DNA of 64,000 bases, taken from an uncultured Gammaproteobacteria bacterium. Lineage in GTDB: Bacteria > Patescibacteriota > Patescibacteriia > Magasanikbacterales > GWA2-37-8. The notes below the pieces were generated by a model that was not told where the DNA came from, searched no databases, and saw only the letters and a program-made list of their open reading frames with translations. This document shows positions 3,981 to 62,010 of the stretch, in pieces. Positions within the stretch are counted from its first letter, which is position 1. Every line of letters starts with the position of its first letter. The position numbers and the translations under genes are program-made. Location of the stretch: the NCBI GenBank assembly GCA_964510885.1, contig CAZEDL010000001.1:684-64683 (forward strand). Reading direction: 5' to 3'.

Positions 3981-3990
3981 TATCTGGTGT

Positions 3991-4018
3991 AAAAAACCAG
4001 TCTCACGACTGGTTTTTT
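3991..4018. terminator. bidirectional rho-independent terminator between convergent genes
   Basis: aaaaaaccagtc-tcacg-gactggtttttt hairpin flanked by A-run and T-run; overlaps the recJ stop codon. Confidence 0.6.
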
Positions 4019-5796
4019 ATTTCACTTTTTCTTAGATCTTCGATCATCATTTGTAATTCACGATTTCCGTTCCATTCATTGACACTGATAGAGAATACCA
4101 TGTCGATTTTATCACCGACGTGTAGTGTTTCTCGCCAGTTTTGAGGGTAGCGGTTAATGTCGCCGAGGCCAAAGCCGATAGTTTTGCGCACTAGGTGCGA
4201 GTGATGTTTAAGTAGTAATCGCAAATGCTTACCATCTTGGCCGACTGGTTCGATGCCGGCGATGGTTAGGCCGTAGGCGGCATATTTTGGTTCTTCGTTG
4301 GCTTGGCCGAACGGTTCAAATTTTTGCAATAGGTCGTAGAGTTTCCAGTTTATTTCTGACAAGTCATCAATCTCGGCATCGATAATGATATTGGGTACTA
4401 ATTTTACGTCAGCCACTGCTTTGGCTGTAGTGGCAAGCAGTTTGGTTTTAAAGTCTTCGAGCACCTCGGGGTTCTTCAGCGAGAAGCCGCAGGCCTGGGG
4501 GTGGCCGCCGAATTTGGCAAAGAATTCCGGCATCGTTTGGAGTGCGGCGATGAGGTTGAATTCTTTGATGCTGCGGCCGGAGCCAGTGATCTGGCCCTTG
4601 TTTAGGCCCATGACTAAGATTGGCTTATAGAATTCGTCTTTAAGGCGACTGGCGATCAGGCCGAGGATGCCGGTGCTCCAGCCGGCGCCAAGCGCAAACA
4701 GAATTGGGTTATCGAGCTGGCTCGTAGTTTTTAAATAGTCGCGGGCTTGATTGAGCAGCTCTTCGGTTAATTTCTGGCGATCGGCATTATTTTGGTTCAG
4801 TTGAGCAGCTAGGTTTGCAGCTTCAGCTTCACTGTCGGCCATAAGCAAATTAAAGGCTACATTCGCATGATCCATCCGCCCGGCGGCATTGATGCGCGGA
4901 GCAATTTTGAAGCCAATGGTGCGGGCATCATAATTGCCGCGTTTAGGGCGACCGGTTTCATCGGCTAGGCCAGTATGGATGAGTAGTTGCTGTAACCCGA
5001 CATTGCGTGTCTTATTAAGTACGGTCAGGCCGTAGCGTACCAGGGTGCGTGATTCGCCAAGTAGTGGCACCATGTCACCAACCGTTGAAATAGATACCAT
5101 GTCTAATAGCCATTTTTCAAAGGCTTCATGAGTTTGACCATCGGGAAGGAGCGGGTTAGTTTTTTTGTGGTTTTGTAATAAAGCCTCTGCTAATTTAAAG
5201 GCGACACCACCGCCGGCGAGTCCTTTGTCGGGGTAGGGTTCACCGGGAACGAGGGGGTGGATAATGGCATCGGCTGGTGGGAACACTGCCGGCATTGCAT
5301 GATGATCAGTGACGATTACAGACAGGCCGAGTTCTTTCGCTAGAGCAATCTCTGGGGTGTTGCTAATGCCGCAATCGCAAGTGATGATGAGTTTAGTGCC
5401 ATTTTCTTTGAGGAGTTTAACGGTATTATTATTTAGTCCGTAGCCATCAGTTTCGCGGTGCGGCAAGAAAATTCCTACATCTTTGGCGCCAATTTTTTTG
5501 AGAGTGGAAATAATTACGACGGAGGCACAAACGCCGTCGGCATCGTAGTCGCCGTGCACGGTTATTTTTTCGCCGCGCGCAATACAGCTCGTGATAAGTT
5601 CGACCGCCTTGGTCATGTCTTTGAACAAGTACGGGTCATGCAAGTCGCTTGAATAATCCGGATTTAAAAATTCATCAATGGCGATTTCTGTGCGCAGGTT
5701 ACGGTTCCAGAGCAGGCGGGTGATACTGCCCGGCAGTTCGGGATGGGCCGCAATAAATTCTGGCGGGGGTGGTGGAAGAATTATCCATTCTTTCAT
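4003..5796 (-). CDS. recJ: single-stranded-DNA-specific exonuclease RecJ (DHH/DHHA1)
   Basis: DHH motifs VHGDYDADGVCAS, ITCDCG, VTDHH; length 597 aa. Confidence 0.85.
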   Translation of the reverse strand: MKEWIILPPPPPEFIAAHPELPGSITRLLWNRNLRTEIAIDEFLNPDYSSDLHDPYLFKDMTKAVELITSCIARGEKITVHGDYDADGVCASVVIISTLKKIGAKDVGIFLPHRETDGYGLNNNTVKLLKENGTKLIITCDCGISNTPEIALAKELGLSVIVTDHHAMPAVFPPADAIIHPLVPGEPYPDKGLAGGGVAFKLAEALLQNHKKTNPLLPDGQTHEAFEKWLLDMVSISTVGDMVPLLGESRTLVRYGLTVLNKTRNVGLQQLLIHTGLADETGRPKRGNYDARTIGFKIAPRINAAGRMDHANVAFNLLMADSEAEAANLAAQLNQNNADRQKLTEELLNQARDYLKTTSQLDNPILFALGAGWSTGILGLIASRLKDEFYKPILVMGLNKGQITGSGRSIKEFNLIAALQTMPEFFAKFGGHPQACGFSLKNPEVLEDFKTKLLATTAKAVADVKLVPNIIIDAEIDDLSEINWKLYDLLQKFEPFGQANEEPKYAAYGLTIAGIEPVGQDGKHLRLLLKHHSHLVRKTIGFGLGDINRYPQNWRETLHVGDKIDMVFSISVNEWNGNRELQMMIEDLRKSEIKNQS

Positions 5797-6303: not shown

Positions 6304-6556
6304 AGATGTACAAAAGTAGGCCTGTAAGGTTGTTTACCTGAGACTGTTAAAATTGAAAAGCTGGGGCGATCGACAAGAATAGCATGGCAATAATGCCAGC
6401 TATGATAATGCCTTTCCAGAGAATAGATTTGGTTGTTTTGGACACAGATTACAGGGGTTAATAGTAAGGATTACACGGATGTTGTTTAATTACACTAAGT
6501 TATTATGTATCGGTGCGCTAATTAGTGCAGTCTAACCACTATCTGTGTAATCCGTG

Positions 6557-8383
6557 TTAACGTTTTAGTACCGCCAAATAGGTCTCGCTCGGGATTTCTA
6601 CTTTGCCGTGGGATTTCATGCGGGCTTTACCTTTCTTTTGTTTTTGTAATAATTTCATTTTGCGCGTATAGTCGCCACCGCTCATTTTGGCCAAGACATC
6701 TTTGCGCAGTGCGGACAGGCGTTCGGCTGCGATGACCTTGCCGCCGAGCGAGGCCTGAATTTTAAGTTCGAATTGCTGGCGGGGGAGCGAGTCTTTGAGT
6801 GATTCAACAATTTTTTTGCCGGTGGCATAGGCCTGATCGCGCCACACCAGGGTGGATAGTGCCTCCACCGGTTCTTCGGCCACCAGCACATCAAGTTTTA
6901 CGACTTCGGTTGGTTCGTAGCGGTCGAATTCGTAGTTCATTGAGGCGTAGCCTGACGTAACTGTTTTAAGTTTATCATAAAAATCAGTAATCAGCGAAGC
7001 CAAGGGGATGCGGTAGTGCAAGAGGGCGCGCTGGTCAGAGCCGGCGCTCAGGTATTCGGTGGTGATATAGGTGCCTTTGCGTTCAGAGACGAGGCCCATT
7101 ACCGCGCCCACTTGATCTTTTGGGGTAATGACATCGAGCGTCATTACGGGCTCTTCGATGGTGGCAAGTTTCGCCGGGTCAGGCATTTCTTGAGGGCTTT
7201 TGATGTAATATTGCTCGCCGCTCGTGGTCGTAACATGATAGGCAACGCTTGGCACGGTGATAATAATTTCAAGGCTATGTTCACGCTTCAAACGTTCTTG
7301 AAAAATATCGAGGTGCAGCATGCCGAGAAACCCGCAGCGAAACCCAAAGCCGAGCGCTTGCGAGTGTTCTGGTTCATAGATAAGCGCCGAGTCACTGAGT
7401 TTTAGTTTATCAATCGCATCGCGCAGATCTTCATAGCCATCCCCTTCATTCGGGAAGATGCCGGCAAAGACCATGGGTTTGACTTCTTTATATCCGGGCA
7501 GCGGAGTCCCAGCGAGGCCACTCATTTTGTCATTGCCAAGGCGGGTAATAGTGTCGCCGACCCGACAATCACGAACTTCTTTGAGACCAGTGACAATATA
7601 CCCAATTTCACCATTTTTAAGTTCGTTGGTTGGGTTCATTTTTGGTTTGTAGTAACCGATTTCCAACACTTCTGCTGGTGTGTTGGTCGACATCAACCAT
7701 AATTTGTCGCCTTTTTTGAAGCTGCCATCAACGACACGCACCGCGGCGACGACGCCTTTGAATTCATTAAAAGCTGAGTCAAAAATAATGGCGCGTGGAA
7801 TGGCGGTTGATTCATCTTTAGGAGCAGGTACGCGATCAACAATCGCTTCGAGAATATCGGGCACACCGAGGCCGGTTTTGCCTGAGGCCAAAATAATATC
7901 TTCGTCTTTACACCCGAGCAGGTGGATCAGTTCTTGTTTGGTTTTTTCGACATTCGCGATCGGCATGTCGACTTTATTGATGACGGGGATAATGGTTAGA
8001 TTCTGTTCGAGAGCCAGGTACAGATTGCCAATCGTCTGGGCTTGCACGCCTTGGGTGGCATCTACGAGTAAGATAGCGCCTTCTACGGCAGCCAGCGAAC
8101 GGGACACTTCGTAGTTAAAATCCACGTGTCCTGGGGTGTCAATCAAATTTAAAATAAAGCGCTCCGTGGGCGCTGTGACTTTTGAAGTGAAGTCCATTCG
8201 GACCGGAGTTAATTTGATGGTGATGCCACGTTCGCGCTCTAACTCCATGGAATCGAGGAGTTGGTTTTTCATGTCGCGTTTTGACACGGTGCCGGTGCAT
8301 TCTAAAAAGCGGTCGGCCAGGGTGGATTTGCCGTGGTCGATATGGGCGATAATACAGAAATTGCGGATGTGGGCGGTAGACAT
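6557..8383 (-). CDS. lepA: elongation factor 4 (LepA)
   Basis: N-terminus IRNFCIIAHIDHGKSTLADR G-domain and conserved LepA C-terminal region; 608 aa. Confidence 0.95.
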   Translation of the reverse strand: MSTAHIRNFCIIAHIDHGKSTLADRFLECTGTVSKRDMKNQLLDSMELERERGITIKLTPVRMDFTSKVTAPTERFILNLIDTPGHVDFNYEVSRSLAAVEGAILLVDATQGVQAQTIGNLYLALEQNLTIIPVINKVDMPIANVEKTKQELIHLLGCKDEDIILASGKTGLGVPDILEAIVDRVPAPKDESTAIPRAIIFDSAFNEFKGVVAAVRVVDGSFKKGDKLWLMSTNTPAEVLEIGYYKPKMNPTNELKNGEIGYIVTGLKEVRDCRVGDTITRLGNDKMSGLAGTPLPGYKEVKPMVFAGIFPNEGDGYEDLRDAIDKLKLSDSALIYEPEHSQALGFGFRCGFLGMLHLDIFQERLKREHSLEIIITVPSVAYHVTTTSGEQYYIKSPQEMPDPAKLATIEEPVMTLDVITPKDQVGAVMGLVSERKGTYITTEYLSAGSDQRALLHYRIPLASLITDFYDKLKTVTSGYASMNYEFDRYEPTEVVKLDVLVAEEPVEALSTLVWRDQAYATGKKIVESLKDSLPRQQFELKIQASLGGKVIAAERLSALRKDVLAKMSGGDYTRKMKLLQKQKKGKARMKSHGKVEIPSETYLAVLKR

Positions 8384-8386
8384 AGC

Positions 8387-10006
8387 TTAGGGTTGGTTCG
8401 TTTCAGTGATATTCGCGGGCAGGTTACGTAGTTTAAGCCAGCGGGTTTTGAAGGTTTTAGCCAGATCAAGCATTTCTTGTACATTCAAGACATAACAAAT
8501 GCCTAGATAGACTAAGATGCCTAGGGTACCAGAAATGAGCCCCTGGAGCAAGATGCCGCTGAAATAATCAAGGTTGAGGCTAGTGCCAAGTGGGTATTTG
8601 ACGAGCTGGATGGTGAAACCCATAGCAAGGCCAGCAAGAGCCACCCGGAAGATCATTTGTACTAGGGCTTCTTCAGGCAAAGGTTTTATTTTTTTGCGCA
8701 GGTAGAAGTAGAGGCCGAATAAGTTGATAACTGCGCCGATTGAAGTAGCGAGCGCGAGGCCCGGCACGCCAAGTGAGTTGTGAAGTGCGAGGGCGATTAT
8801 AATGGTGACCACTTCACTGGCAATGGCAATGGCTAGCGGCGTCGTGGTGTCTGAGAAGGCGTAGAAACCGCGGGCCAGGAGGGGGATGAGGGCTTGGGCA
8901 AATAAGCTCAGTGCAAAGAAAGCCAGGGTGTCGGCGGTAGCAATGGTAGCTGCCCAGTCAAATTGACCACTGCCGAGAATGACACGCACAATTTGGGCAC
9001 GTAAAAGCAGCATGGCCAGTGAGCAGGGAACGATCAGGAAAATTATATAGCGCAGCGTACTCATGAAGCGTTCGCGGAATAGGGATAGATCATGGTTTGC
9101 TACGGCTCCAGAGAGAATGGGGAAGACGGCTAACGCAAATGGGATGCCGATCAAACCAAGCGGAACCGTCTGCAAGTTATTGGCATAATTAAATACGGCT
9201 ACGCTGCCGGTCGGCAAGAGTGAAGCAAGCATGGTGATGGCTACGATATTGAATTGTGTGATAGCGAGGCCAATCGTGCGGGGAATCATGAGTGCGCCAA
9301 CCCGCCGGGTATCGCGATCACGCCAGTTGGCAATCGGCTGCCAGCGAAAGCCAGCTTGGTACGCGCCGTAGATTTGGAGTCCAGCATGTAGCAAGGCGCC
9401 GAACACTACGCCATAGGCGAGGCCATTGACCCCAAGGAGCGGGACAAATACGGTGGCACCGAGAATAATTCCGAGATTGTAAAAAATAGGGGCCAGTGAA
9501 TAGAGGACAAAGCGGCGTAGTGATTGCAAGATGCCGCCCATGACCATAGAAATGCTAAGGAGGAGCGGAGAGAGAAAAATAATGCGGGTAAATGAGATGA
9601 CGAGCTCTAGGCGTTGACCGGTAAAGCCGGGGGCGATTAGCCGCGCCACGAGCGGAGCTCCGATCATGCCGCCAATCGCTAAGATGAGCATGGCCGCAGC
9701 GATTAAATTCAGGACATTATTGGCTAATTTCCAGGCAGCTTTGTCACCATTGTCTTTGGTCCATAATTTGGTGAACGTGGGAATGAACCCGGCGGTGAGC
9801 GCCCCTACCACCAGTAGATTATAAATCAGGTCGGGGATTTTAAAGGCGGCAAAATAAGCATCGATCACGGGCCCGGTGCTGTAGTAATGGGCAAATATAT
9901 GATCGCGCAGAATGCCGGCAGCACGGCTAAGCAGGCCGGCCACGCTAATAATAAGGGCAGCGCCGGTGATAGTTTGGCTTGGGGAATGGAAGACTTTTTT
10001 AAACAC
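8387..10006 (-). CDS. murJ: lipid II flippase MurJ (MviN)
   Basis: 539 aa polytopic; N-terminal AALIISVAGLLSRAAGILRD..FKIPDL characteristic of the MurJ/MOP family; 3-nt gap to lepA. Confidence 0.85.
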   Translation of the reverse strand: MFKKVFHSPSQTITGAALIISVAGLLSRAAGILRDHIFAHYYSTGPVIDAYFAAFKIPDLIYNLLVVGALTAGFIPTFTKLWTKDNGDKAAWKLANNVLNLIAAAMLILAIGGMIGAPLVARLIAPGFTGQRLELVISFTRIIFLSPLLLSISMVMGGILQSLRRFVLYSLAPIFYNLGIILGATVFVPLLGVNGLAYGVVFGALLHAGLQIYGAYQAGFRWQPIANWRDRDTRRVGALMIPRTIGLAITQFNIVAITMLASLLPTGSVAVFNYANNLQTVPLGLIGIPFALAVFPILSGAVANHDLSLFRERFMSTLRYIIFLIVPCSLAMLLLRAQIVRVILGSGQFDWAATIATADTLAFFALSLFAQALIPLLARGFYAFSDTTTPLAIAIASEVVTIIIALALHNSLGVPGLALATSIGAVINLFGLYFYLRKKIKPLPEEALVQMIFRVALAGLAMGFTIQLVKYPLGTSLNLDYFSGILLQGLISGTLGILVYLGICYVLNVQEMLDLAKTFKTRWLKLRNLPANITETNQP

Positions 10007-10009
10007 AGG

Positions 10010-10717
10010 TTAACGGGTGGCAGTGGCTGGAGCCGGCGCCAGATTGACGGTTAGAATGGCGTAATCAGTGCCGGGCCGGTTGGCTTCGTCGCCTTCGGCC
10101 AAGATAGAGCCGGTAATCCCGGCTTTGTTCTCGAATGATACTTGTTTGATGGTCTGGCCGGTGGTTTCCTGAACAATGGTGTAGCCAGCTTTGCGCAGTT
10201 CGGTTTTGTAGTAGTTCGCTACAAATGAAGGTTCGGCATCCATGTTGTGCCATTCGATCTGGATGGTGTCGCGATGATCCGAAACAGGGGTGGCCAGGAT
10301 GTGCCAGGTTTTGGTGAGCGTGCCGACGCGGCTATCCGGCTCTGAGCTCTGGGTGCCAGTGTTATTTTTGGAGAGGAACAATTGCGATAAAATTAATTTA
10401 GGGAAAAAGGCGGCGATTTCTACGGCTCGGTTTTTATATCCGCCGGAAACAAAGGTGATGCGTTCGATGGCATCGCGATCATAGACCGGAATTTCTTTGG
10501 GGAAGCTAGGCGGCACGTTTGATAGTACAGTCGGGCCTTTGCCTACGGCCAAGCGAAAGGCGATAATACTGCCCACGATAAAAATAATAATAGCTAAACA
10601 GCCGGTGAATAGAATCCGGCGCAAGCCGAAGTGGCTTTTGGTAAGTTCGCCGATCGGAGGTTCAACGATCTCTATCTCGTCAAGCAAATCGGGGTTTATA
10701 GCCATAGATAATGACAA
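10010..10717 (-). CDS. hypothetical membrane-anchored protein (single TM, extracytoplasmic domain)
   Basis: One TM helix (ILFTGCLAIIIFIVGSIIAF), then a hydrophilic domain; tightly coupled upstream of murJ. Confidence 0.5.
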   Translation of the reverse strand: MSLSMAINPDLLDEIEIVEPPIGELTKSHFGLRRILFTGCLAIIIFIVGSIIAFRLAVGKGPTVLSNVPPSFPKEIPVYDRDAIERITFVSGGYKNRAVEIAAFFPKLILSQLFLSKNNTGTQSSEPDSRVGTLTKTWHILATPVSDHRDTIQIEWHNMDAEPSFVANYYKTELRKAGYTIVQETTGQTIKQVSFENKAGITGSILAEGDEANRPGTDYAILTVNLAPAPATATR

Positions 10718-15379: not shown

Positions 15380-15859
15380 ATGCTTCTCGCTTCTAAACAT
15401 AAAGGACCGGTAAAAATTTGGCATCTAGTGCTATTTGCACTTATTATTTTGGCTGCGATCGGGACACGGCTATATGCGCGTTATTGGCCAACTGGCATTG
15501 TGCGGATTGGCGGGCAGGAGTTAAAAGTGTGGGTAGCGGATAACGATCGCCACCGGTTCCGGGGGCTGAGTGACCGCCGTGATCTTGGAGGTAAGGGTGG
15601 AATGTTATTTGTGTTTCCCGTGCGTAGTCAGCATACTATGGTGATGCGGGAGATGAATTTTCCTCTTGATATTGTGTGGCTGGATGGAAACACGATCGTA
15701 GATATTGCACCAAATTTGCCGCCTGAACCAGGGCGCCCTGAAAGCGAGCTGACACCCTATCCCGGACGTGCACCATCTACAAAAGTCCTCGAATTACCGG
15801 CCGGCTTTACCGCTACGTATGTGGTGGCGGTGGGTGATACGGTGACAATTGCTTATTAA
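15380..15859 (+). CDS. DUF192 domain protein
   Basis: N-terminal TM, MLFVFP..., DIVWLD, LELPAGF motifs recalled from DUF192/COG1430. Confidence 0.6.
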   Translation: MLLASKHKGPVKIWHLVLFALIILAAIGTRLYARYWPTGIVRIGGQELKVWVADNDRHRFRGLSDRRDLGGKGGMLFVFPVRSQHTMVMREMNFPLDIVWLDGNTIVDIAPNLPPEPGRPESELTPYPGRAPSTKVLELPAGFTATYVVAVGDTVTIAY

Positions 15860-15893
15860 TTTGGCTAAAATAAGCAAAAATAATGCGCTTAAC

Positions 15894-15977
15894 TGTCATT
15901 CCCGCGCAAGCGGGAATCTAAGGTGGTTTAACAAAGTCTATAGTGTTTACTGGATTCCAGCTTGCGCGGGAATGACA
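15894..15977. repeat. palindromic intergenic repeat element (TGTCATTCCCGCGCAAGCGGGAATC ... GGATTCCAGCTTGCGCGGGAATGACA)
   Basis: About 24-bp terminal inverted repeats with an internal ATTCCCGC-GCAA-GCGGGAAT hairpin; related copies at 37677-37827 and 55085-55192. Confidence 0.6.
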
Positions 15978-16072
15978 AAACGAGTTTTTGGCGAATAATA
16001 CACATTATTTAATTGACAACGATTACGTTTTAGGCTATACTCTACTGCGTTAGTATATTTTAAGCAGTTTTT

Positions 16073-16378
16073 ATGCAGGCAGTTATTGCTACCGGTGGTA
16101 AACAATATTGGGTTAAGACTGGAGACGTCCTTAAGGTTGAAAAGCTGGTTGGCGACGAAGGTCAGACAATTACTTTCAATGAAGTCTTGTTTCAGGCAGC
16201 AGATGATGGCAGTGACTTGAAGGTTGGTATGCCGACCCTCATGGGTGCTACGGTCAGCGCGGTGATTGTGAAGCAGGGCAAGCATCGCACGGTGCGCGTA
16301 GAGAAATTTAAACGCAAAGTGCGGTATCACAAAGTGCATGGACAGCGTCAGCGGTATACGGAAGTGAAAATTTCATAA
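16073..16378 (+). CDS. rplU: 50S ribosomal protein L21
   Basis: MQAVIATGGKQYWVKTGDVLKVEKL ... RRYTEVKI; canonical bL21. Confidence 0.9.
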   Translation: MQAVIATGGKQYWVKTGDVLKVEKLVGDEGQTITFNEVLFQAADDGSDLKVGMPTLMGATVSAVIVKQGKHRTVRVEKFKRKVRYHKVHGQRQRYTEVKIS

Positions 16379-16385
16379 TAGATAT

Positions 16386-16417
16386 AAAAAAATCCCGATA
16401 TATACTCGGGATTTTTT
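16386..16417. terminator. bidirectional rho-independent terminator after rplU
   Basis: aaaaaatcccga-tatatac-tcgggatttttt. Confidence 0.6.
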
Positions 16418-16991
16418 AATACATTTTTTTAATATTTTTTTGTTTTTCTTGCTTAATTTTTTCGGCTTGCCAACGTTTGGGACTGAAACAACTTTTGCTC
16501 TCCCAGCTAATCCCAAAGTTTGCTAAGAAGGTTCGCAGTGGGCCCGGTGGTTTAATTTTACAAATAGTTTCGGTTTCTGAGTAGAATAGGTCCGTTGGGA
16601 GGCCGTGGTCTTTCCAGGTTTGTTGAAGGTCTGTGAATTCACTGCGTGTTAGGTTTAAGGCCCAACAACAATTGTCATCGTAATGACTAAACGTGCTATC
16701 GGGATTACTTGGGTCGTTGCCAATGATAACTTTAAATAGATCGGGGGTGGCTGAGTTTGTATTGGTTTGTATCCACGTAAAAATTTCTGAAATAACTGCT
16801 TCTCTCTCAGCGGGGGTCCCAGTGAGGTCGCCAGATCTAGCTTCCTTCTTTGCACCTTTAAGTGGGTAGAGAATTTCGGCTTCGTAATAACTAGCCGTGC
16901 GACTGATATGCCCGGCAGTTATTTGGATAGCCTTAGGAAACTCGACACTCTTTTCATCAAAAAAATAATAGAGCTCGGGAAGATAGATCAT
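16416..16991 (-). CDS. hypothetical protein (191 aa from internal ATG), co-transcribed downstream of recR
   Basis: The ORF-track start overlaps recR. The ATG at 16991 (MIYLPELYYFF) lies 4 nt after the recR stop. Cys/Trp-containing, no recognised family. Confidence 0.5.
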   Translation of the reverse strand: MIYLPELYYFFDEKSVEFPKAIQITAGHISRTASYYEAEILYPLKGAKKEARSGDLTGTPAEREAVISEIFTWIQTNTNSATPDLFKVIIGNDPSNPDSTFSHYDDNCCWALNLTRSEFTDLQQTWKDHGLPTDLFYSETETICKIKPPGPLRTFLANFGISWESKSCFSPKRWQAEKIKQEKQKNIKKMY

Positions 16992-16995
16992 AGAT

Positions 16996-17595
16996 TTATT
17001 TTTCCGTTCGGCCTTTGAGGGCATTGCCGAGGGTGATTTCGTCGGCATATTGAAGGTCGCTGCCCATGGGGAGGCCGCGGGCAAGGCGGGTGATTTTTAG
17101 GTCGGGTTTTAGTTTTTTGATCTGTTGTTCCAGATATAGCCGAGTGGTTTCTCCGGGAAGGTCGGGATTCAAAGCGATGATTATTTCTTGCGGCGTTTCA
17201 GCGGTAACTCTTTTCAGAAGTTCTAGAATCTTGGTTTTATCGAGTTCGTCTTGATCGAGCGAATCGATCGTGCCGCGCAGCACATGATAGCGGCCTTTAT
17301 ATTGTTTAGTTTTTTCGAGAGCCACGAGTTCGGGTGGATTGGCTACCACGCAGATCATGGCGGCGTCTCGGCTTGCATCAGCGCAAATGGGGCAGGGATT
17401 ACTGTCGGAAAAATCCCAGCAGGTTTCGCAGCTTTTTACGTTGTCTATTACTTCTTTAAGGGCGATGAGGAGCTCCGTGGCTTCTTTTTTGCCTGATTTA
17501 AGCCAGTGAAATAAAAATTTTTCCGCCGTGTGTTGTCCAACGGTGGGGAGTTTTTTGAGTTGTTTGAGAAGGCTTTGGATGGAAGGACTATACAT
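16996..17595 (-). CDS. recR: recombination protein RecR
   Basis: HhH region (LPTVGQHTAEKF), C4 zinc finger CETC...CPIC, Toprim region RGLPMGSDLQYADEITLGNAL; start taken at MYSPSIQ, abutting the stop of the upstream gene. Confidence 0.9.
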   Translation of the reverse strand: MYSPSIQSLLKQLKKLPTVGQHTAEKFLFHWLKSGKKEATELLIALKEVIDNVKSCETCWDFSDSNPCPICADASRDAAMICVVANPPELVALEKTKQYKGRYHVLRGTIDSLDQDELDKTKILELLKRVTAETPQEIIIALNPDLPGETTRLYLEQQIKKLKPDLKITRLARGLPMGSDLQYADEITLGNALKGRTEK

Positions 17596-17596
17596 G

Positions 17597-18865
17597 TTAA
17601 ACGCGAGAAAGATCGGTATGAGCAAATTTTTTAATTTGATCCATAGCTTTTTTAGCGACTGCTCTATCTTCGTTAATTATCCAGTGGGCAGCAGGAAACA
17701 AGGTTGATTTCATGCCCTCTGTATCAGGATCAAACTCTAATTCTAATCTTTTAAGCACTTCCGATTCTTCAATGTGGCCAGCTTCAAATTCATCCATGGC
17801 ATGATCGTATTCGTTTAAAAATTCTCTAAAATTCTGCTGAATCGTAGAAATTTTTGCTCGAAATTCTTGTTCTGATGTCTTTATCAGTTTTAGGAGGGCT
17901 GCAGAAATTTGCGAGTCTGGCTCAGTTTCGGCAGCTTTTATTGCTTGGTCAGAAAAAAATTGAATTTTTTTATCAATGGTTGCTTTAAGATTTTCGAATG
18001 GATCGCTGAACAGTTCTTGCTCAGTATTAAGATATGTAAAATTAGCTCGGGCTACTTCGCTTAGGTCGTAGGTGAGCTGCATGACTTCGTTAGCGATGAT
18101 CAGGGCGGAAGTAATTGTTTCGGGAGATCGAGCAGTTATTTTTTCATATATATATCCCTGATTATGTTCAGGTTCGTTTTGACCAGGCTTTCTTTTGCTA
18201 ATAGTTGCTTCTTTTAATCCTAATAATTCCAACAAAGCTTTATTGGTTGCTGGCCAATCTCGTTGGTGGAGTAGGGGTTGTTCTTCAAAAACCAAAAAAC
18301 CTCCTTCAGCTACTTGGAGATAATTCTCTTTGTCTAAACGATGGTTTATACCTGGGAAGATTTTTTCTTGGCCGGATTCGTCGCTCAAGCGAAGATCTTG
18401 TCCAGCTCCGGTTGGTGCGTACACATACCAGAGATCCACTTTTTTTCCTCCCCTTTTTTTTTCATCTACCAAACGTGCGTCCATGGTCAGCTCTGTTACG
18501 GTCCGTAGTTCACCCGCAAATTCAAAATTAAATATACGAGTCTGCGGTTCGGGTGTGGTAGTAGTATAAGGAATGCCTAATTGTTGAAGTTCGTTTGCAA
18601 AGCTACGCTCCACTGTGATGGTGTGGTCACAGTAGATAAATCTTTTTAAGTTAAAGGCTAAAAAAACTCGGAATGCATCTCCTCCGCACGCTGGATAATA
18701 CCCCGATTTAGGGGGGTGTTCAGCGGTAGCATCACGGGTTGATTCAATATTAGCCTTAAGTATAGATGGAGAAATGTTTCTGTTTTTGGCGATTAGTTCA
18801 ACCGCTTGTTGTAGTTGGTGGTGGCGCGATTCATTATCTAAAAATAACCTTGACTCTTGGTTCAT
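17597..18865 (-). CDS. hypothetical 422-aa protein inserted between ybaB and recR
   Basis: Long ORF, translationally coupled to recR (stop at 17597, recR start at 17595); no recognisable motifs. Confidence 0.6.
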   Translation of the reverse strand: MNQESRLFLDNESRHHQLQQAVELIAKNRNISPSILKANIESTRDATAEHPPKSGYYPACGGDAFRVFLAFNLKRFIYCDHTITVERSFANELQQLGIPYTTTTPEPQTRIFNFEFAGELRTVTELTMDARLVDEKKRGGKKVDLWYVYAPTGAGQDLRLSDESGQEKIFPGINHRLDKENYLQVAEGGFLVFEEQPLLHQRDWPATNKALLELLGLKEATISKRKPGQNEPEHNQGYIYEKITARSPETITSALIIANEVMQLTYDLSEVARANFTYLNTEQELFSDPFENLKATIDKKIQFFSDQAIKAAETEPDSQISAALLKLIKTSEQEFRAKISTIQQNFREFLNEYDHAMDEFEAGHIEESEVLKRLELEFDPDTEGMKSTLFPAAHWIINEDRAVAKKAMDQIKKFAHTDLSRV

Positions 18866-18868
18866 ATT

Positions 18869-19174
18869 TTAACTCATTCCCGGCAAGTTAAATCCGCCCA
18901 TGGATTGCATTTTGGTGGCGATAGTACGCTGCATTTTTTTGAGGGCATCCGAATAGGCATCTTTGAGACCGCTGATAAGTTTGTCTTTTTTATCTGGCGA
19001 CATCAGTTCGTCATCAATGGCGAGGCCGCTGACCTGGAGGTTACCATCCATGGTGAGAACGATTTTATCGCCGGCAGCTTTGACAGTGACGGTTTCGCCG
19101 GCCAAGAGATCCTGGAGTTTTTTGCCTTGATCACGGAGATCTTTGAATTCTTTGAGTTTGCTGAATACGGACAT
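18869..19174 (-). CDS. ybaB: nucleoid-associated protein YbaB/EbfC
   Basis: 101 aa, C-terminal MQSMGGFNLPGM, helical KKLQDL...; family topology. Confidence 0.8.
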   Translation of the reverse strand: MSVFSKLKEFKDLRDQGKKLQDLLAGETVTVKAAGDKIVLTMDGNLQVSGLAIDDELMSPDKKDKLISGLKDAYSDALKKMQRTIATKMQSMGGFNLPGMS

Positions 19175-24829: not shown

Positions 24830-24870
24830 GATGAGGAATAAAGAATTACGAATTAAGAATATCGAATGAA

Positions 24871-24908
24871 ATAAAATAATCCCGACTAAATCGGGATTAT
24901 TTTATTTC
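24871..24908. terminator. bidirectional rho-independent terminator
   Basis: ataaaataatcccga-ctaaa-tcgggattattttatttcat. Confidence 0.65.
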
Positions 24909-25047
24909 ATCATTATTTCTTATATTCCAAGAAAGAATAATGGGTTGGGTGGGACGAGGTGGGTGGGGTACGGTCGTCCCGGCCGTGTTGGCTCACTTCC
25001 TTTCCTTGTTGCGCCTGCCTATGGCACGGCCAACAGGATTGCGCTGC

Positions 25048-37589: not shown

Positions 37590-37676
37590 AGGGTAAAAGT
37601 AACTCTAGTAGCCTCCATTTTATCACAGATATTTAAAAGCACTAACCACATGTATTCATTCGGGAATTACCCACTT

Positions 37677-37827
37677 TGTCATCCTGAGTAAAACGAAGGA
37701 TCTCTGTCTTAATTATTTACATAATCACCGGACAGAGATTCTTCGCTACCGCTCAGAATGACAAATTGATTTTAGAATGGTCTGTGACTAGATTCCCGCC
37801 GGAGTTTACCCCCATCTTAGGCGGGGC
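37677..37827. repeat. composite palindromic repeat element (TGTCATCCTGAG...CTCAGAATGACA plus GATTCCCGCC...GGCGGGAATGACAG)
   Basis: 30-nt imperfect arms gtcatcctgagtaaaacgaaggatctctgtc / gacagagattcttcgctaccgctcagaatgac; second hairpin attcccgcc...ggcgggaat; same family as 15894-15977 and 55085-55192. Confidence 0.55.
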
Positions 37828-37884
37828 GGGAATGACAGAAAGAAACGTTTCAGACTTTCATTCACCAAATTCACTAACCCCCAG

Positions 37885-37914
37885 TTGACATAGTGAACAC
37901 TTGTTCACTATACT
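37885..37914 (+). promoter_or_regulatory. lexA promoter (TTGACA-N18-TATACT) with Cheo-type SOS box GAACACTTGTTC in the spacer
   Basis: ttgacaTAGTGAACACTTGTTCACtatact read directly; GAAC-N4-GTTC inside an 8+8 inverted repeat AGTGAACA/TGTTCACT at 37895-37906. Confidence 0.6.
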
Positions 37915-37957
37915 ATATACACTACTATGTAATGTAAACTTTAGCTCTAGTAATAAT

Positions 37958-38536
37958 ATGCCCACCCCGGCCCACCTAAACGCCATCATGCAATTTTATC
38001 GCCGCCATAAACGCTTACCATCATATCGTGAAATGTTGCCGCTGACTGGTTTTAAATCCACCAATGCCGTCTTCAGGCTGGTCGAAAAATATATTGCGGC
38101 TGGTTGGCTACACCGGGATAGTGCTGGCAAACTCTCTCCGGGTCGCCGGTTTCTTGGGGTGCCGCTGCTTGGTTCGGTTGCTGCCGGTTGGCCGTCGCCC
38201 GCCGAAGAAGAGTTGGTGGATACCATGACTCTTGATGAATGGTTGATTGGCAATCGCCAGGCCACCTTTATGCTCAAAGTCTCAGGTGATTCCATGATCG
38301 ATGCTGGCATTAAGCCTGGAGACACCATTTTGGTGGAGCGCGGCCGCACTCCCAAAAATGGCGATATTGTGGTGGCGGAAGTTGATAATCAGTGGACGCT
38401 CAAATATTTTCAAAAACACCGTGAACAAGTGGTACTCGTGCCCGCTAACAAAAAATATCACCCCATTATTCCTAAACAAGAATTGAATATTGCCGCCGTA
38501 GTTACCGCCGTGATCCGCAAATATCACATGGTATGA
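37958..38536 (+). CDS. lexA: SOS repressor LexA (S24 peptidase)
   Basis: N-terminal wHTH, cleavage-site region VAAGWPSPAEE, catalytic VSGDSMIDAGI (Ser) and K in IVVAEVDNQWTLKYF; start set at MPTPAHL. Confidence 0.9.
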   Translation: MPTPAHLNAIMQFYRRHKRLPSYREMLPLTGFKSTNAVFRLVEKYIAAGWLHRDSAGKLSPGRRFLGVPLLGSVAAGWPSPAEEELVDTMTLDEWLIGNRQATFMLKVSGDSMIDAGIKPGDTILVERGRTPKNGDIVVAEVDNQWTLKYFQKHREQVVLVPANKKYHPIIPKQELNIAAVVTAVIRKYHMV

Positions 38537-39846
38537 CGGAGCTAGGCTCAATTCCGACAGCTGTTTCTTCTCGCGCCATCATTCATATCGATGGCGACTC
38601 TTTTTTTGCCAGCTGCGAACAGGCTCGTAATCCGCAATTACGTGGTAAGCCAGTCATTACCGGGAAAGAGCGGGGGATAGCGGCCTCTATGAGTTACGAA
38701 GCCAAAGCGCGGGGTGTAACGCGAGCCATGCCGTTATTCGAAATTAAACGCCTCTGCCCCGATGCTGTATTTTTGCCTTCAGATTATGAGATGTATAGCC
38801 TGATGTCGCATCATTTTTATGACATCGTGCGGCGCTACACCGGTTGCATTGAAGAATATGGCATCGATGAATGCTTTGGCGAACTCACCGGGCTTGAAGC
38901 CTCATTTCATAAAAAGTATCAGCAATTAATCGAAGAATTACGAGCTGAACTCAAACGTGAACTCGGCTGCACTTTTTCAGTTGGTCTTGGGCCCAATAAA
39001 ACTTTGGCCAAACTGGGGTCTAATTGGAAAAAACCATACGGTCTCACCACTATAACCCCCGACACCATTGCGGATTTTTTAAAAACTCTGCCGGTGGAAA
39101 AAATTTGGGGTATTGGTCGGCGCACTACCGCTTTTTTAAATACGCAAGGAATTACGACTGCCGGTGAGTTTGCTGCCCAAACAGAATCATGGATAAAACA
39201 AAATCGAACCCGCCCATTTCATGATATTTGGCGTGAACTCCATGGGGAAATGGTTATCCCACTTTATTATGAAGAAAAACGCCAATACCATTCTATCCAG
39301 AAATTCAAAACCTTCAGCCCACCCTCGCGCGACCCAGATTTTATTTTTGCCCAGTTATCAAAAAATATTGAAAACGCGTGCATTAAACTGCGCCGGTATA
39401 ACCAAGCGACACCAAGCGTTTATATCATTTTGCGTACCCAAGATTTTCGCCACCATACCGTGGAAGTACCACTCCTGAGGCCTACCAACTTACCACCCGA
39501 AATTATCCCTCTGGTGCGGCCAGCTTTTCTTAAATTATTCAAAAAACAACTCTATCGCGCCACCGGCATCGTATTTTTCAATCTTACTCCCATGGTGGTA
39601 CAAGCAGATTTATTCGGTGCCACCGAGCGGGTGGAGAAATTGCAGCGCCTCTATGCCAGCGCCGATGCCGTGGCTAAGAAATATGGCAAGCACACACTGT
39701 TCCTTGGGACCAGTTGGCGAGCTCAGCGGTTTAAAGCACATCTCACTGCGCGAGGCGATGAACCCGTTCGAACTTCTACATTACTTAAAGGAGAAACCAA
39801 GCGTAAACGCCTGGGAATCCCAATGTTATTCGGAGGAACGGTGTAA
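38533..39846 (+). CDS. dinB: Y-family DNA polymerase (DinB/Pol IV-like)
   Basis: IHIDGDSFFASCEQ (catalytic D), IDECFGELTG (DE), little-finger region; 4-nt overlap with lexA. Confidence 0.8.
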   Translation: MTELGSIPTAVSSRAIIHIDGDSFFASCEQARNPQLRGKPVITGKERGIAASMSYEAKARGVTRAMPLFEIKRLCPDAVFLPSDYEMYSLMSHHFYDIVRRYTGCIEEYGIDECFGELTGLEASFHKKYQQLIEELRAELKRELGCTFSVGLGPNKTLAKLGSNWKKPYGLTTITPDTIADFLKTLPVEKIWGIGRRTTAFLNTQGITTAGEFAAQTESWIKQNRTRPFHDIWRELHGEMVIPLYYEEKRQYHSIQKFKTFSPPSRDPDFIFAQLSKNIENACIKLRRYNQATPSVYIILRTQDFRHHTVEVPLLRPTNLPPEIIPLVRPAFLKLFKKQLYRATGIVFFNLTPMVVQADLFGATERVEKLQRLYASADAVAKKYGKHTLFLGTSWRAQRFKAHLTARGDEPVRTSTLLKGETKRKRLGIPMLFGGTV

Positions 39847-40381: not shown

Positions 40382-40490
40382 TCTTGCTCTGGCTTGCCGC
40401 CACCGTCTCTATATTGTGGGCTACAGGAGGTTCTCCACCTGGCGCCCGTCCCATGGTTACAAGTTCTTTTAGCCATCGGACGCCTCAGGT

Positions 40491-40531
40491 GGACATTAAA
40501 AAACCCGGATACACCCGGGTTTTTAATGTCC
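40491..40531. terminator. bidirectional rho-independent terminator
   Basis: ggacattaaaaaacccgg-atacac-ccgggtttttaatgtcc, an 18-bp perfect stem. Confidence 0.7.
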
Positions 40532-40550
40532 ATTGCTTGTAATAAAGTAA

Positions 40551-44333: not shown

Positions 44334-45884
44334 ATGAAAAATATTTCATACCGCAGATTTTTTCAGATAATCGGCAGTGCAATCATACTTCTACATACTA
44401 CGATACTCCCAAATCCAGTCGGAGCGCAAACGATCATCTCCGCTCCTGGCGAACAATTAGATAAAAATCTACAGATCATCAGTGATGAGGAAGTGGCCCT
44501 GGGAAACAAAACTATCTTTCGGGCCTCAGCGTCGGTTGCCACCACTTCGTCTCTTAATTATACCTGGCAATTTAGCGATGGGCAGAATCAGATCGAGCAT
44601 GGGGTTGAAGCTGCCCATTCCTTTGATACCACGGGTATTCATACCGTTACCGTTCGGATAACTGCCCCCAATATTAGTGAGCAAATTAGTAAGGATATTT
44701 TTGTTTACAATAAAAAAATCTTCCTGATTACTGGTTCCAATCAAACCGGAAATGCAGGCGCCACTTTAGACCAGCTTAAAACAGCCGCCACTGACGAGCA
44801 AAACTCGCTTGAAATTCTAGAAGTAGACACCGACAGCAGCATCTTCGTGACCGAAGATCGCCTGCTTACCCTGTTCGAGCGCAGCGGCCAATCCCTGGCC
44901 GCAGCCGATATGATTATTTTTGATGTGCCCGCTGCTCGTGGCAGCCAAGCCTTTGCCCGGTACATCCACTCGGTATCGGAAGAATTACAAGAAAAATTTA
45001 CTCATCCCTTATACATAAATATCACCCCGCGCGATTTTAATGATCTGCGGTTTTTATTACAGCAGGTTAGCCGGGTTATCCGTCCTGATATGCTGCTGCT
45101 GATGCATCCGCCAGCACTCGAATACTTGGTAACTGCCACCAACTACGGACAATTAACTACGGCACTGAGAGCAACCGACGTGCCGTATCTGCAAATTACA
45201 GCGTCGGATAGCGGGCCGCTCTGGCACGGGTTATGGAAATTATTGTCCGTATTTGTATCACAAGGGATCTCTGTCAGTGTTATTTACCTTATCCTGATCA
45301 TCCCCTTAATTGTTCTCGTTACCGTGTTTGCTCGCCAAGTGCTCGGCATGCCCACGTTTGGAGTGTATGGGCCAGTAATGACCGCCGCCTCGTTTTTAAT
45401 GCTAGGCCTTAAACTCGGCCTCTTGGTATTCTGTTTTGTCATAGTGGTCACCTATTGCGTCAAATTTATTATCAATCGGGCTAAATTGCTGTACATCTCC
45501 AAAGTGGGTCTTAATCTGAGTTTGCTCAGTGCGTCATTTTTATTTTTGATCTGGGTAATTGGTGTAACCCGCAGCTCCATTTCCTTGTCATTGGCTATCT
45601 TTCCCATGCTCCTTATGGCCACCGTGGCCGAGAAATTCATTGCCGCCCAATCTGAAGAAGGGTTTCGTCAAGCCATCTTGGCTGTGATTTCGACCACCAC
45701 CATCATTGTGGTAAGTTTTTTAGCGGTCACCCATATCGCAGTCGTAACCTTTGTTCAGTCCTGGCCTGAAATCATTTTGCTGGCCATTCTGTTCACCTTT
45801 ATTCTCGGTAAATTTACTGGCCTACGCCTTGATGAATATATTCGCTTCCGCACCCTCTTGCGAGATAACGGAACTGAAGAATAA
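44334..45884 (+). CDS. membrane protein: signal peptide, PKD domain, unknown periplasmic domain, C-terminal 7TM bundle (7TM_transglut-like)
   Basis: PKD motif NYTWQFSDGQ...HSF..TGIHTVTVRI; seven predicted TM helices from about aa 290-500. Confidence 0.7.
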   Translation: MKNISYRRFFQIIGSAIILLHTTILPNPVGAQTIISAPGEQLDKNLQIISDEEVALGNKTIFRASASVATTSSLNYTWQFSDGQNQIEHGVEAAHSFDTTGIHTVTVRITAPNISEQISKDIFVYNKKIFLITGSNQTGNAGATLDQLKTAATDEQNSLEILEVDTDSSIFVTEDRLLTLFERSGQSLAAADMIIFDVPAARGSQAFARYIHSVSEELQEKFTHPLYINITPRDFNDLRFLLQQVSRVIRPDMLLLMHPPALEYLVTATNYGQLTTALRATDVPYLQITASDSGPLWHGLWKLLSVFVSQGISVSVIYLILIIPLIVLVTVFARQVLGMPTFGVYGPVMTAASFLMLGLKLGLLVFCFVIVVTYCVKFIINRAKLLYISKVGLNLSLLSASFLFLIWVIGVTRSSISLSLAIFPMLLMATVAEKFIAAQSEEGFRQAILAVISTTTIIVVSFLAVTHIAVVTFVQSWPEIILLAILFTFILGKFTGLRLDEYIRFRTLLRDNGTEE

Positions 45885-54978: not shown

Positions 54979-55084
54979 AGAGTAGTAGTTAATAAATAAT
55001 TCAGAAATTATTAATATACGGTAACACCAAAAACAATCATTGGCAATAACTAGAGCATTTAAGGTGTGAATTACAAAATTCATC

Positions 55085-55192
55085 TGTCATCCTGAACGAA
55101 CGTGAAGGATCTCTGTCCAACTGGTCAACATATCGACCGATAGGGATTCCCCCAAAAGGGCCTCTTCGGGGTTCGTTTCACTCAGAATGACA
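55085..55192. repeat. palindromic repeat element (TGTCATCCTGAACGAACGTGAAGGATCTCTGTCC ... CACTCAGAATGACA)
   Basis: Shares termini and the internal GAAGGATCTCTGTC block with 37677-37762; the outer arms form an imperfect hairpin. Confidence 0.55.
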
Positions 55193-55214
55193 ATTTTTTA
55201 CCAAGCTCGAGTAT

Positions 55215-60138: not shown

Positions 60139-60277
60139 CCGCATCGTTGTTCCATGAGGGGGTGAACGAACGAAAACGGGAAAACGACGTGGGTGCCGTC
60201 GGAGCGTTCGCTCAATCCAATGCACCTATCCCTATTAAATTTTCTTTAACAAGCGAAGGCTGTTTGATAAGGAAAAA

Positions 60278-60305
60278 TAACTCTCAAAAAGAGTTGTTTT
60301 TATTT
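60278..60305 (+). terminator. weak rho-independent terminator after the S9 peptidase gene
   Basis: aactctcaaaaagagtt-gttttt. Confidence 0.45.
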
Positions 60306-60394
60306 TAAAATTATAACTAAAATAGCGCCTAAAATTAGGCACTATTTGAATAAAATTTTAGGTGCTCTGATTGATACGTGACGCTAGAACCTAT

Positions 60395-61060
60395 TTATAA
60401 TTTTCTATAACCCAGAATTACATACTTGGGTATAGCGGAATCCGCAGACAATAAAACCGGAGCAGAGTATTCCTCAAACACTCTTGTGTGCCCATACTGA
60501 GAAAATATCCTGTCGTATTCCTCGGTGTTTCTTCTGTAAATAGGAAATACGAAATCAGTTCCAGCAATTTTTAGAGTATCAGTAACATTTCGATTGTTTA
60601 GGTGGGCCGGGTTGTGGTTTGCAAAAATTAGAAAGCCTCCACTGCTTAAACTTTTTGCTAGTTGCGCAATTTCGTCAGTATCAATAAATTGCAAAACCAT
60701 TCCGGAAACTATCAAATCAAATTTCCCATTTTTATCGGATGCTTCTCTTGCTGTTTCACCATTTCCTACTAACAGCTTAATAGTATTAGGCAAGTTTTCT
60801 TGGCCGATACTGATCATGTCTGTAGAAATATCAATGCCGGTAACATCAAAACCAAGTTTCTGGAGATCTAAACAAAACATCCCGGTGCCACAGCCAAAAT
60901 CTAATGCCTTTAAGCCGCTAGCATGATGGATATTTTGTTTTATAAAATTGATAAAAATAGGCCATACGCCTTCTTTTCTCTCATCAGAACTTGAGCTCTT
61001 CTGTGAAGTAAAGTAATTAAATCTACCGCTTAGCTTGTTCCATTGATCAGCAAGATTCAT
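60395..61060 (-). CDS. class I SAM-dependent methyltransferase
   Basis: KALDFGCGTGMFCLDLQKLGFDVTGIDIS (motif I), DLIVSGMVLQFI (motif II). Confidence 0.7.
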   Translation of the reverse strand: MNLADQWNKLSGRFNYFTSQKSSSSDERKEGVWPIFINFIKQNIHHASGLKALDFGCGTGMFCLDLQKLGFDVTGIDISTDMISIGQENLPNTIKLLVGNGETAREASDKNGKFDLIVSGMVLQFIDTDEIAQLAKSLSSGGFLIFANHNPAHLNNRNVTDTLKIAGTDFVFPIYRRNTEEYDRIFSQYGHTRVFEEYSAPVLLSADSAIPKYVILGYRKL

Positions 61061-61266
61061 AGATATTTTAACAAGAAAATTTTCTAATTTATATCATATA
61101 TTTTAAATTAACCCAAAATATAAAAAATAATGGCTAAATTTAGCCATTATTTTTAAGAGGTTCGAACTTCGTCTATTAGCTCGCCTGGCGGGACAGCTTT
61201 CGAACTTTTGATTGGAGGGGTGCTATTCTTGCCCCAGAGACCCTTATTAATCATGCTCAACAACTA

Positions 61267-61965: not shown

Positions 61966-62010
61966 AACTATTTCTTTCTATAAAAGGTGAGAAAAAACAA
62001 GAAGTAAATA

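Follow-up and report, generated by a model that had tools for sequence, protein, structure and literature searches.

The dRS3 repeat occurs in hundreds of copies per Neisseria genome, flanking RS segments (NIMEs) and serving as a phage integration target. The Neisseria Transformation Sequence (NTS, CGTCATTCCCGCGMAVGCGGGAATCYRG) is a longer, oriented sequence that contains dRS3 (ATTCCC-N8-GGGAAT), and is bound solely as single-stranded DNA, on one strand only, by SsnA, a 94-aa Neisseria GIY-YIG protein that cuts a few nucleotides upstream, 5' of a GTC (PMC11893778, Nat Commun 2025). This GTC, made up of the three bases immediately 5' of the palindrome, governs SsnA cutting, while the C just 3' of the palindrome governs binding. 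The same work defined a degenerate Ssn-related motif (SRM), HGTCWY..RNCYNB, searched for with one mismatch permitted, and reported that the ssn gene (single-domain GIY-YIG, cd10448) is often bracketed by the motif; in its survey Ssn was encoded in 81% of the genomes with more than 200 motifs (PMC11893778). The copies in Neisseria have also been ascribed, in a preprint, to a Group 2 RAYT.

We analysed a stretch of 64 kb (the window, GC about 46%) that contains dispersed palindromic elements with TGTCAT-type ends. We put the probability at roughly 70% that these are Ssn-related hairpin motifs in the form of gene-less inverted doublets. The family itself was described in 2025; what is new here is a CPR host and a second hairpin class that lies outside the published pattern.

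Hairpin arms in the window

The first-pass annotation had drawn attention to an 84-bp element with near-perfect inverted ends (copy 1, Table 1), and this description was accurate: the two inverted arms are 25 nt each, complementary at 24 of 25 positions (96%) and spaced by 34 nt, and they form the best long, high-identity pair among all inverted repeats up to 150 bp apart in the 64 kb. The accompanying statement that each arm contains the palindromic core applies fully to the left arm, which has a perfect mini-palindrome, ATTCCCGC-GCAA-GCGGGAAT at 15898-15917, with an 8-bp stem and a 4-nt loop, whereas the right arm has a single stem mismatch (ATTCCAGC...GCGGGAAT). Folded as single-stranded DNA and compared with shuffles, the entire element gives -30.9 kcal/mol (z -10); the left arm alone is predicted to form a hairpin of -9 kcal/mol (z -4.4), and the hairpin of the right arm is weakened, at -4 kcal/mol. 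The spacer is not conserved with respect to the spacers of doublets in other genomes, which measure 19-64 nt and differ between genomes. Copy 1 is preceded by the stop codon of the DUF192 gene and followed by the rplU promoter, which is conserved (TTGACA-17-TATACT, 16013-16041), and an identical element is found on 1-2-kb Logan contigs from SRR16481186/7. The ends of the element resemble a -35 box; at its right end, ATGACA followed 16 nt downstream by AATAAT (15972-15999) makes a sigma-70-like promoter with a score of 10/12, upstream of the native rplU promoter.

When the three bases 3' of each arm are included, the left (15894-15921) and right (15950-15977) arms each match the NTS consensus at 26 of 28 positions, with mismatches at position 1 (T for C) and at one other position. 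T at position 1 is a common variant, present in 53 of 174 hairpins among the matches listed. The extended right arm fits the degenerate SRM pattern exactly, and the left arm departs from it only at the last degenerate base. The strict dRS3 pattern has one exact match in the window, at 15898-15917, for a chance expectation of 0.1 per window; it has none in the right arm of copy 1 or in the solo hairpin described below. The GTC 5' of the stem and the C 3' of it are kept in all seven arms of the window, of both classes. A likeness to dRS3 had been noted at first pass, with the caution that it might be coincidental. The comparison was right, since both arms match NTS at 26/28 and the right arm fits the SRM pattern; the caution can be dropped, because the identical motif recurs across bacterial phyla and goes together with one particular nuclease family, GIY-YIG. 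Copy 1 is thus a gene-less pair of Neisseria-type dRS3/NTS hairpin repeats and probably a new instance of the system described in 2025.

The breadth of this distribution was seen in several collections, for which our counts are samples among the matches listed (at least 120 stretches per scan) and no census. The exact 18-mer TGTCATTCCCGCGCAAGC was found in at least 120 stretches of GTDB representative genomes, from more than 20 phyla among the matches listed. Its listed hosts include Patescibacteria, Alpha-, Beta- and Gammaproteobacteria, Planctomycetota, Chloroflexi, Acidobacteriota, Omnitrophota, Nitrospirae, Ignavibacteria, Verrucomicrobia, Actinomycetes, Gemmatimonadota and Zixibacteria, among others. 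The 24-mer hairpin was found in at least 120 IMG/VR stretches ranging from 32 to 72% GC. Close pairs of NTS-type hairpins were convergent doublets with GTCAT outward in 34 of 47 cases among the matches listed.

The octamer TGTCATYC has 10 occurrences in the window where 3.46 would be expected; none of 100 shuffles reached this count, and eight of the 10 are element termini. For a census of arms, profile HMMs trained on arms from other genomes were run on the 64-kb window; they recovered exactly seven arms and no further match (Table 1). An element previously delimited at 37677-37827 does consist of related hairpins, but it is really two things, an 87-bp doublet (copy 2a) and, 27 nt after it, a solo NTS-type hairpin. 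Likewise copies 2a and 3, taken at first pass as kin of copy 1, are related hairpins yet belong to a different class and are not copies of it. All copies are intergenic in the window, as had been stated: copy 2a and the solo hairpin share the region from which a PAP2 gene and a lexA-like/umuC pair diverge, and copy 3 lies between DUF1428 and DUF1801 genes, with its 55085 end abutting the annotated start of the DUF1428 ORF. Copy 2a folds as an entire element at -21.7 kcal/mol (z -6.7) and can be aligned with doublets from metagenomes and relatives. The solo hairpin has a perfect 9-bp stem (ATTCCCGCC...GGCGGGAAT, ending ...GAATGACA) and folds at -11.3 kcal/mol (z -2.5). In copy 3 the left arm (55085-55118, plus strand) is intact, the right arm, which ends at 55192 on the minus strand, is broken by extra bases, and the fold is like that of shuffles (z -1.8). 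Several window copies look decayed, namely copy 1 with its right-arm mismatch, the degenerate copy 3 and the solo hairpin. Copy 2a is intact in both arms, and so is copy 1 in its left arm.

Table 1. Positions of the hairpin elements and their arms in the window, with the empty rsmH site
Feature	Position	Strand	Sequence or size	Evidence
Copy 1, doublet of inverted NTS-type hairpin arms, GTCAT outward	15894..15977	.	84 bp; TGTCATTCCCGCGCAAGCGGGAATC + 34 nt + GATTCCAGCTTGCGCGGGAATGACA	Sequence and fold
Copy 1 left arm	15894..15918	+	T-GTC-ATTCCCGC-GCAA-GCGGGAAT-C	dRS3 match; nhmmer E 7.8e-11
Copy 1 spacer	15919..15952	.	34 nt	Compared with doublets of other genomes
Copy 1 right arm	15953..15977	-	TGTCATTCCCGCGCAAGCTGGAATC (minus-strand reading)	nhmmer E 1.3e-8
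Copy 1, recovered NTS-type arms	15893-15920; 15947-15978	+; -		Profile HMM
Copy 2a, second-class doublet	37677..37763	.	87 bp	nhmmer E 6e-10 and 1.2e-8
Copy 2a left arm	37677-37708	+	TGTCATCCTGAG-TAAAA-CGAAGGATCTCTGTC	
Copy 2a right arm	37731-37763	-	TGTCATTCTGAG-CGGTAG-CGAAGAATCTCTGTC	
Copy 2a, recovered second-class arms	37676-37708; 37730-37764	+; -		Profile HMM
Solo NTS-type hairpin, expanded loop	37791..37837	-	TGTCATTCCCGCC-(loop)-GGCGGGAATC	Split nhmmer hits
Solo hairpin, recovered (split)	37785-37838	-		Profile HMM
Copy 3, degenerate second-class doublet	55085..55192	.	108 bp	nhmmer E 2.6e-7 and 1.6e-4
Copy 3, recovered second-class arms	55084-55118; 55172-55193	+; -		Profile HMM
Empty rsmH site, filled in L420	13315..13350	+		Synteny

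Other structures of the window were noted in passing. A candidate at 45255-45297, similar to a second-class arm, was rejected as a chance match lacking TGTCAT/ATGACA ends. A separate family of palindromes with an A-run, a GC stem and a T-run (16386-16425, 24866-24910, 40490-40532, 3988-4027 and 46145-46184) appears to consist of bidirectional terminator-like hairpins and is clearly unlike the TGTCAT elements. At 37885-37915 a promoter-like TTGACA...TATACT stretch holds the palindrome GAACacttGTTC, which resembles a Gram-positive-type SOS (Cheo) box and lies upstream of the lexA-like (37901-38536, Peptidase_S24) and umuC-like (38533-39846) pair. No RNA gene was found in the window by Rfam (at gathering thresholds) or ARAGORN. 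GC falls to 35.5% in 60001-64000, from about 46% elsewhere, and two ORFs there (61267-61965 and 62011-63846) have no Pfam match, so this portion may be foreign DNA. At about 28000 the GC skew passes from positive to negative, with a peak of the cumulative skew near 28 kb that may be a replication landmark.

A second hairpin class

The second-class hairpin, GTCAT(C/T)CTGAG...CGAAG(G/A)ATCTCTGTC, shares with the NTS class both the GTC...C frame and the doublet layout. The arms of copies 2a and 3 read GTC-AT(C/T)CTGA(G/A)-loop-(C/T)GAAG(G/A)AT-CTCTGTC, and the published SRM pattern has no match in them (37677-37763 and 55085-55192). This class too is widespread, with at least 120 IMG/VR stretches; in the form with the specific CTCTGTC extension it was found in at least 120 metagenome stretches, with 60 doublets in the 120 loci listed. 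A literature search on the second-class strings returned nothing informative.

Single arms of this class have weak predicted folding energies, and their structure was assessed through covariation, scored at the pattern positions that had been left free in the searches. At stem position 3 we counted 30 T-A pairs, 24 C-G pairs and three mismatches, and at stem position 8, 25 G-C pairs, 14 A-T pairs and one other combination; the covarying positions lie around an invariant tandem G.A/A.G mismatch. The structure of the second-class arm is thus under selection. Because stem positions 3 and 8 covary, it is the individual arm hairpin that is conserved, and not merely the long hairpin formed arm to arm. 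The class may well work like an SRM, to judge from its frame, its stem covariation and the homologous GIY-YIG genes that it brackets, yet it falls outside the published definition. NTS-type and second-class elements co-occur in Magasanikbacteria-type genomes that have the bracketed nuclease, as the two classes do in the window.

Bracketed nuclease genes and comparison with relatives

Unbiased clustering of the ORFs neighbouring NTS loci gave generic families and one cluster of small proteins, which proved to be GIY-YIG (PF01541). An HMM was built from this cluster and then run on the hairpin-selected loci. Genes for GIY-YIG proteins of about 95 aa lay between inverted arms of one class or the other in 14 of 15 cases among the matches listed: arm(+)/arm(-) pairs of the NTS class bracketed eight of nine single-domain PF01541 genes (at loci L186, L141, L180, L147, L143, L044, L104 and L005, with L174 the exception), and second-class arms bracketed six of six (L382, L438, L462 and L405, found with the same HMM, and L486 and L489). 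The unit at L382 is compact, totalling 365 bp: TGTCATTCTGAGCAGAGCGAAGAATCTCTGTCC, 8 nt, the ATG and its gene, then GACAGAGATCCTTCACTGCGTTCAGGATGACA. PF01541 was confirmed for the bracketed nucleases, NCBIfam gave no hit, and the closest solved structure was only the UPF0213 protein 1ZG2. The exceptional gene at L174 (2580-2918, in the Patescibacteria MAG FK_Sedi_B_Bin.260) encodes an 81-aa GIY-YIG protein of a different subtype. It is flanked on one side by a full tRNA-like sequence and on the other by a duplicate of that sequence's 5' portion, an arrangement that suggests insertion into a tRNA gene.

Among the matches listed, the named homologues closest to the L382 nuclease come from Candidatus Magasanikbacteria and Patescibacteria, as do the nearest named relatives of the RecR encoded in the window. 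At L486 (GCA_016182085.1), L489 (GCA_964395135.1) and L382, the bracketed gene belongs to a locus bounded by genes for an RF-1-domain protein and a PIF1 helicase. Two different small GIY-YIG genes are in tandem there (9247-9936, 9961-10420 and 6388-7089, respectively), the first of each tandem being bracketed by second-class arms; at L486 the second paralogue (80 aa, 9620-9862) is directly followed by an NTS-type doublet. That the nuclease gene occupies one conserved locus in three Magasanikbacteria-type genomes suggests a resident gene rather than a hopping one. By analogy, this would resemble the relation between a resident enzyme and many repeats known for RAYT and REPINs. The 64-kb window has no GIY-YIG gene by regex or HMM on six-frame translations. 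Around viral loci of the second class, the neighbour clusters comprised an HTH protein and shared phage structural genes; a nuclease was not among them.

The two closest sampled relatives, L124 and L125 (RecR 78% and 85% identical to that of the window), lack copy 1 in their orthologous DUF192-rplU spacer. This spacer is 213 bp in the window vs. 124 bp in L124 and 88 bp in L125, and the rplU promoter aligns in all three. Neither L124 (20.6 kb) nor L125 has any hairpin arm. At 15800-18750, close to the mraZ cluster, L124 carries two genes for IS1595-family DDE transposases. The dnaB-ybaB-recR-rplU cluster of the window has two extra ORFs (within 16416-18865) relative to L124 and L125, both without a Pfam match: one at 17597-18865 (minus strand, 422 aa) between ybaB (18869-19174) and recR, and one at 16416-17084 between recR and rplU.

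A CPR contig from groundwater (L420/L427) is also syntenic with the window, with MraZ, DnaB and RecR 77%, 74% and 62% identical. It carries three intergenic second-class doublets and one inside rsmH. The latter (L420 1130-1215, Hainich groundwater contig ERZ1292629.139) is a 78-bp second-class doublet that lies in frame and adds 26 aa after ...PLDMRYD (LSCHSEKRSDEESLSQSPNGQRSFVPLRMT region), at a site that is empty in the window. Nesting was seen as well: second-class doublets at L367 and L379 each enclose an NTS-type doublet. Target-site duplications were sought at the three window doublets and at the rsmH insertion, and none is shared by their flanks; nor did a defined target emerge. The first-pass proposal of a REP/MITE-like mobile hairpin family is borne out: the doublet recurs in many genomes, copy 1 is missing from two relatives, and related doublets have been inserted within a gene and within each other. 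Such comparisons indicate that the elements come and go.

Explanations and comparison with known systems

The window holds two hairpin classes, NTS/dRS3 (copy 1 and the solo hairpin) and CTGAG...CGAAG (copies 2a and 3), and we propose for both that each arm would fold, in single-stranded DNA, into a short hairpin, its stem opening with the AT of GTCAT and flanked 3' by C. By the Neisseria parallel, where the nuclease SsnA (~95 aa) binds the hairpin of one strand alone and makes its nick a few nucleotides 5' of GTC, a putative cognate nuclease, probably encoded elsewhere in the genome of the source organism, would act on the window arms. Since arms of either class bracket a nuclease gene elsewhere, the 84-108-bp doublets can be read as the bracketed unit minus its gene, so that doublet would relate to nuclease unit as MITE to IS, or REPIN to RAYT. 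The nuclease, or recombination provoked by it, may spread the doublets. Inverted arms amount to one 5'-edge site per strand, so the nicks would fall just outside the element and on opposite strands. We know of no transposition scheme that such an arrangement would fit, and one functional site per strand would not obviously give excision; nor is a transposition chemistry known for Ssn.

The most serious alternative is that the copies are orphan relics, decaying and functionless remains of an earlier invasion or of exchange with foreign DNA by recombination, in a genome whose nuclease was lost or never present. The window has just seven arms and no nuclease gene in 64 kb, L124 and L125 are free of arms, and the state of the copies (the mismatch in copy 1, folding of copy 3 no better than shuffles, one solo hairpin) is what decay would leave. 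We nevertheless find this reading unlikely, with copy 2a intact in both arms and copy 1 in its left one, the bracketed nuclease common in Magasanikbacteria-type genomes, and the published association between abundant motifs and Ssn. Improbable, in our view, is a REPIN-RAYT origin, in which a domesticated Y1 transposase of the IS200/IS605 type would copy the doublets, the scheme put forward for the Neisseria ATTCCCGCGCAGGCGGGAATC repeats. The geometry fits the REPIN definition (a pair of inverted REP-like hairpins spaced by under 130 bp) and the preprint ties the Neisseria copies to Group 2 RAYT, but the window has no Y1_Tnp-like ORF by a six-frame probe (an E. coli sequence of limited sensitivity, by which divergent RAYTs could be missed). 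A PF01797 gene was present at one of about 360 listed loci (L167), where it was about 4 kb from the hairpin and not flanked by arms; by contrast, 14 GIY-YIG genes were directly bracketed.

Could the hairpins instead have arisen in place as regulatory structures, whether terminators, mRNA stabilisers or promoter-region structures? Their intergenic positions (copy 1 follows a stop codon and precedes the rplU promoter), strong whole-element folds and the promoter-like right end of copy 1 would suit such a role. A scan of 15600-16300, however, found no terminator-like site at copy 1, that is, no GC-rich stem-loop with a T-run, and the genome's real terminator-like hairpins differ in having an A-run, GC stem and T-run. 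Because, in addition, the sequence is pan-bacterial, a terminator origin is excluded. Identical sequences in more than 20 phyla among the matches listed, the element within a coding region, and its lack from orthologous spacers where the rplU promoter is conserved leave a local regulatory origin largely refuted and, by our estimate, very improbable. We would give still less weight to the idea that these serve an IS110-family or phage recombinase as attachment or target sites, in the way that filamentous prophages of Neisseria use dRS3. A report cited in PMC11893778 does describe dRS3 as a phage recombinase target; against this, the 30 window ORFs scanned with Pfam have no transposase or integrase domain, no prophage was seen among them, and no recombinase recurs among the neighbours of 120 GTDB loci among the matches listed.

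If the elements are gene-less doublets of Ssn-related motifs, as we favour, a further and more speculative step may be entertained: that bracketed GIY-YIG units and gene-less doublets together make up a distinct nuclease-driven, single-stranded-DNA-hairpin counterpart of 'IS plus MITE', with neither a DDE nor an HUH transposase. We offer this only tentatively and would rather bet against it. Were it true, such a system would be active across more than 20 phyla, including the tiny-genome CPR bacteria, would have at least two hairpin 'dialects' matched to side-by-side paralogous nucleases (as at L486), and could place elements within essential genes, rsmH for one, without breaking the reading frame.

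Far from being peculiar to Neisseria, the dRS3/NTS hairpin is a near-invariant sequence common to very distant bacteria, in this case a Patescibacteria genome. To the 2025 description we can add that CPR bacteria carry the system and that a second class, with structural covariation, also brackets homologous nucleases. Presence or absence in relatives, nested copies and the in-frame rsmH insertion provide concrete cases for asking how the repeats spread, and specific pairs of hairpin and nuclease could enlarge the toolbox of site-specific single-stranded DNA nucleases.

Among described repeats, MITEs (e.g., the Neisseria Correia element) are likewise short and non-coding, with terminal inverted repeats, presence/absence differences between relatives and a longer gene-bearing counterpart with the same ends. 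The window elements differ from them in that a search for target-site duplications found none, every terminal repeat forms a hairpin of its own, and no DDE transposase is involved. Rickettsia palindromic elements also include palindromic repeats in frame in protein genes, as in the rsmH of the relative's contig, but their families are unrelated in sequence as far as tested. The REPIN-RAYT system of E. coli and Pseudomonas (REP/BIME; Bertels and Rainey) offers two inverted hairpin repeats that form a larger hairpin, within a spacing of about 130 bp that the window doublets share, and many gene-less copies vs. one resident, vertically inherited, repeat-flanked enzyme gene, the counterpart of which may be the RF-1/GIY-YIG/PIF1 locus. 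The enzyme here is a GIY-YIG nuclease and not an HUH/Y1 transposase, and no arm-flanked RAYT was found in the window or the roughly 360 listed loci.

Compared with the dRS3/NIME repeats, copy 1 has the perfect dRS3 palindrome, and its doublet with internal spacer mirrors the dRS3-RS-dRS3 units of Neisseria-derived loci (L014, L020 and L093); its 34-nt spacer is, however, unrelated to the Neisseria RS sequences (about 54 nt), and the 64-kb window has no arrays and a tiny copy number. Relative to the NTS/SRM-SsnA system, the host differs (Patescibacteria, or CPR, which the main text of PMC11893778 does not mention), the first base is T instead of C, the 64-kb window has no ssn gene, and there is the added second class (CTGAG...CGAAG, with its tandem G.A and CTCTGTC extension) that fails the SRM pattern. 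In common with that system, copy 1 and the solo hairpin carry the core GTCATTCCCGCG-MAV-GCGGGAATC with the GTC and 3' C that matter for function and could form hairpins as single-stranded DNA, and the same arms elsewhere bracket cd10448-like GIY-YIG genes of about 95 aa, as PMC11893778 describes.
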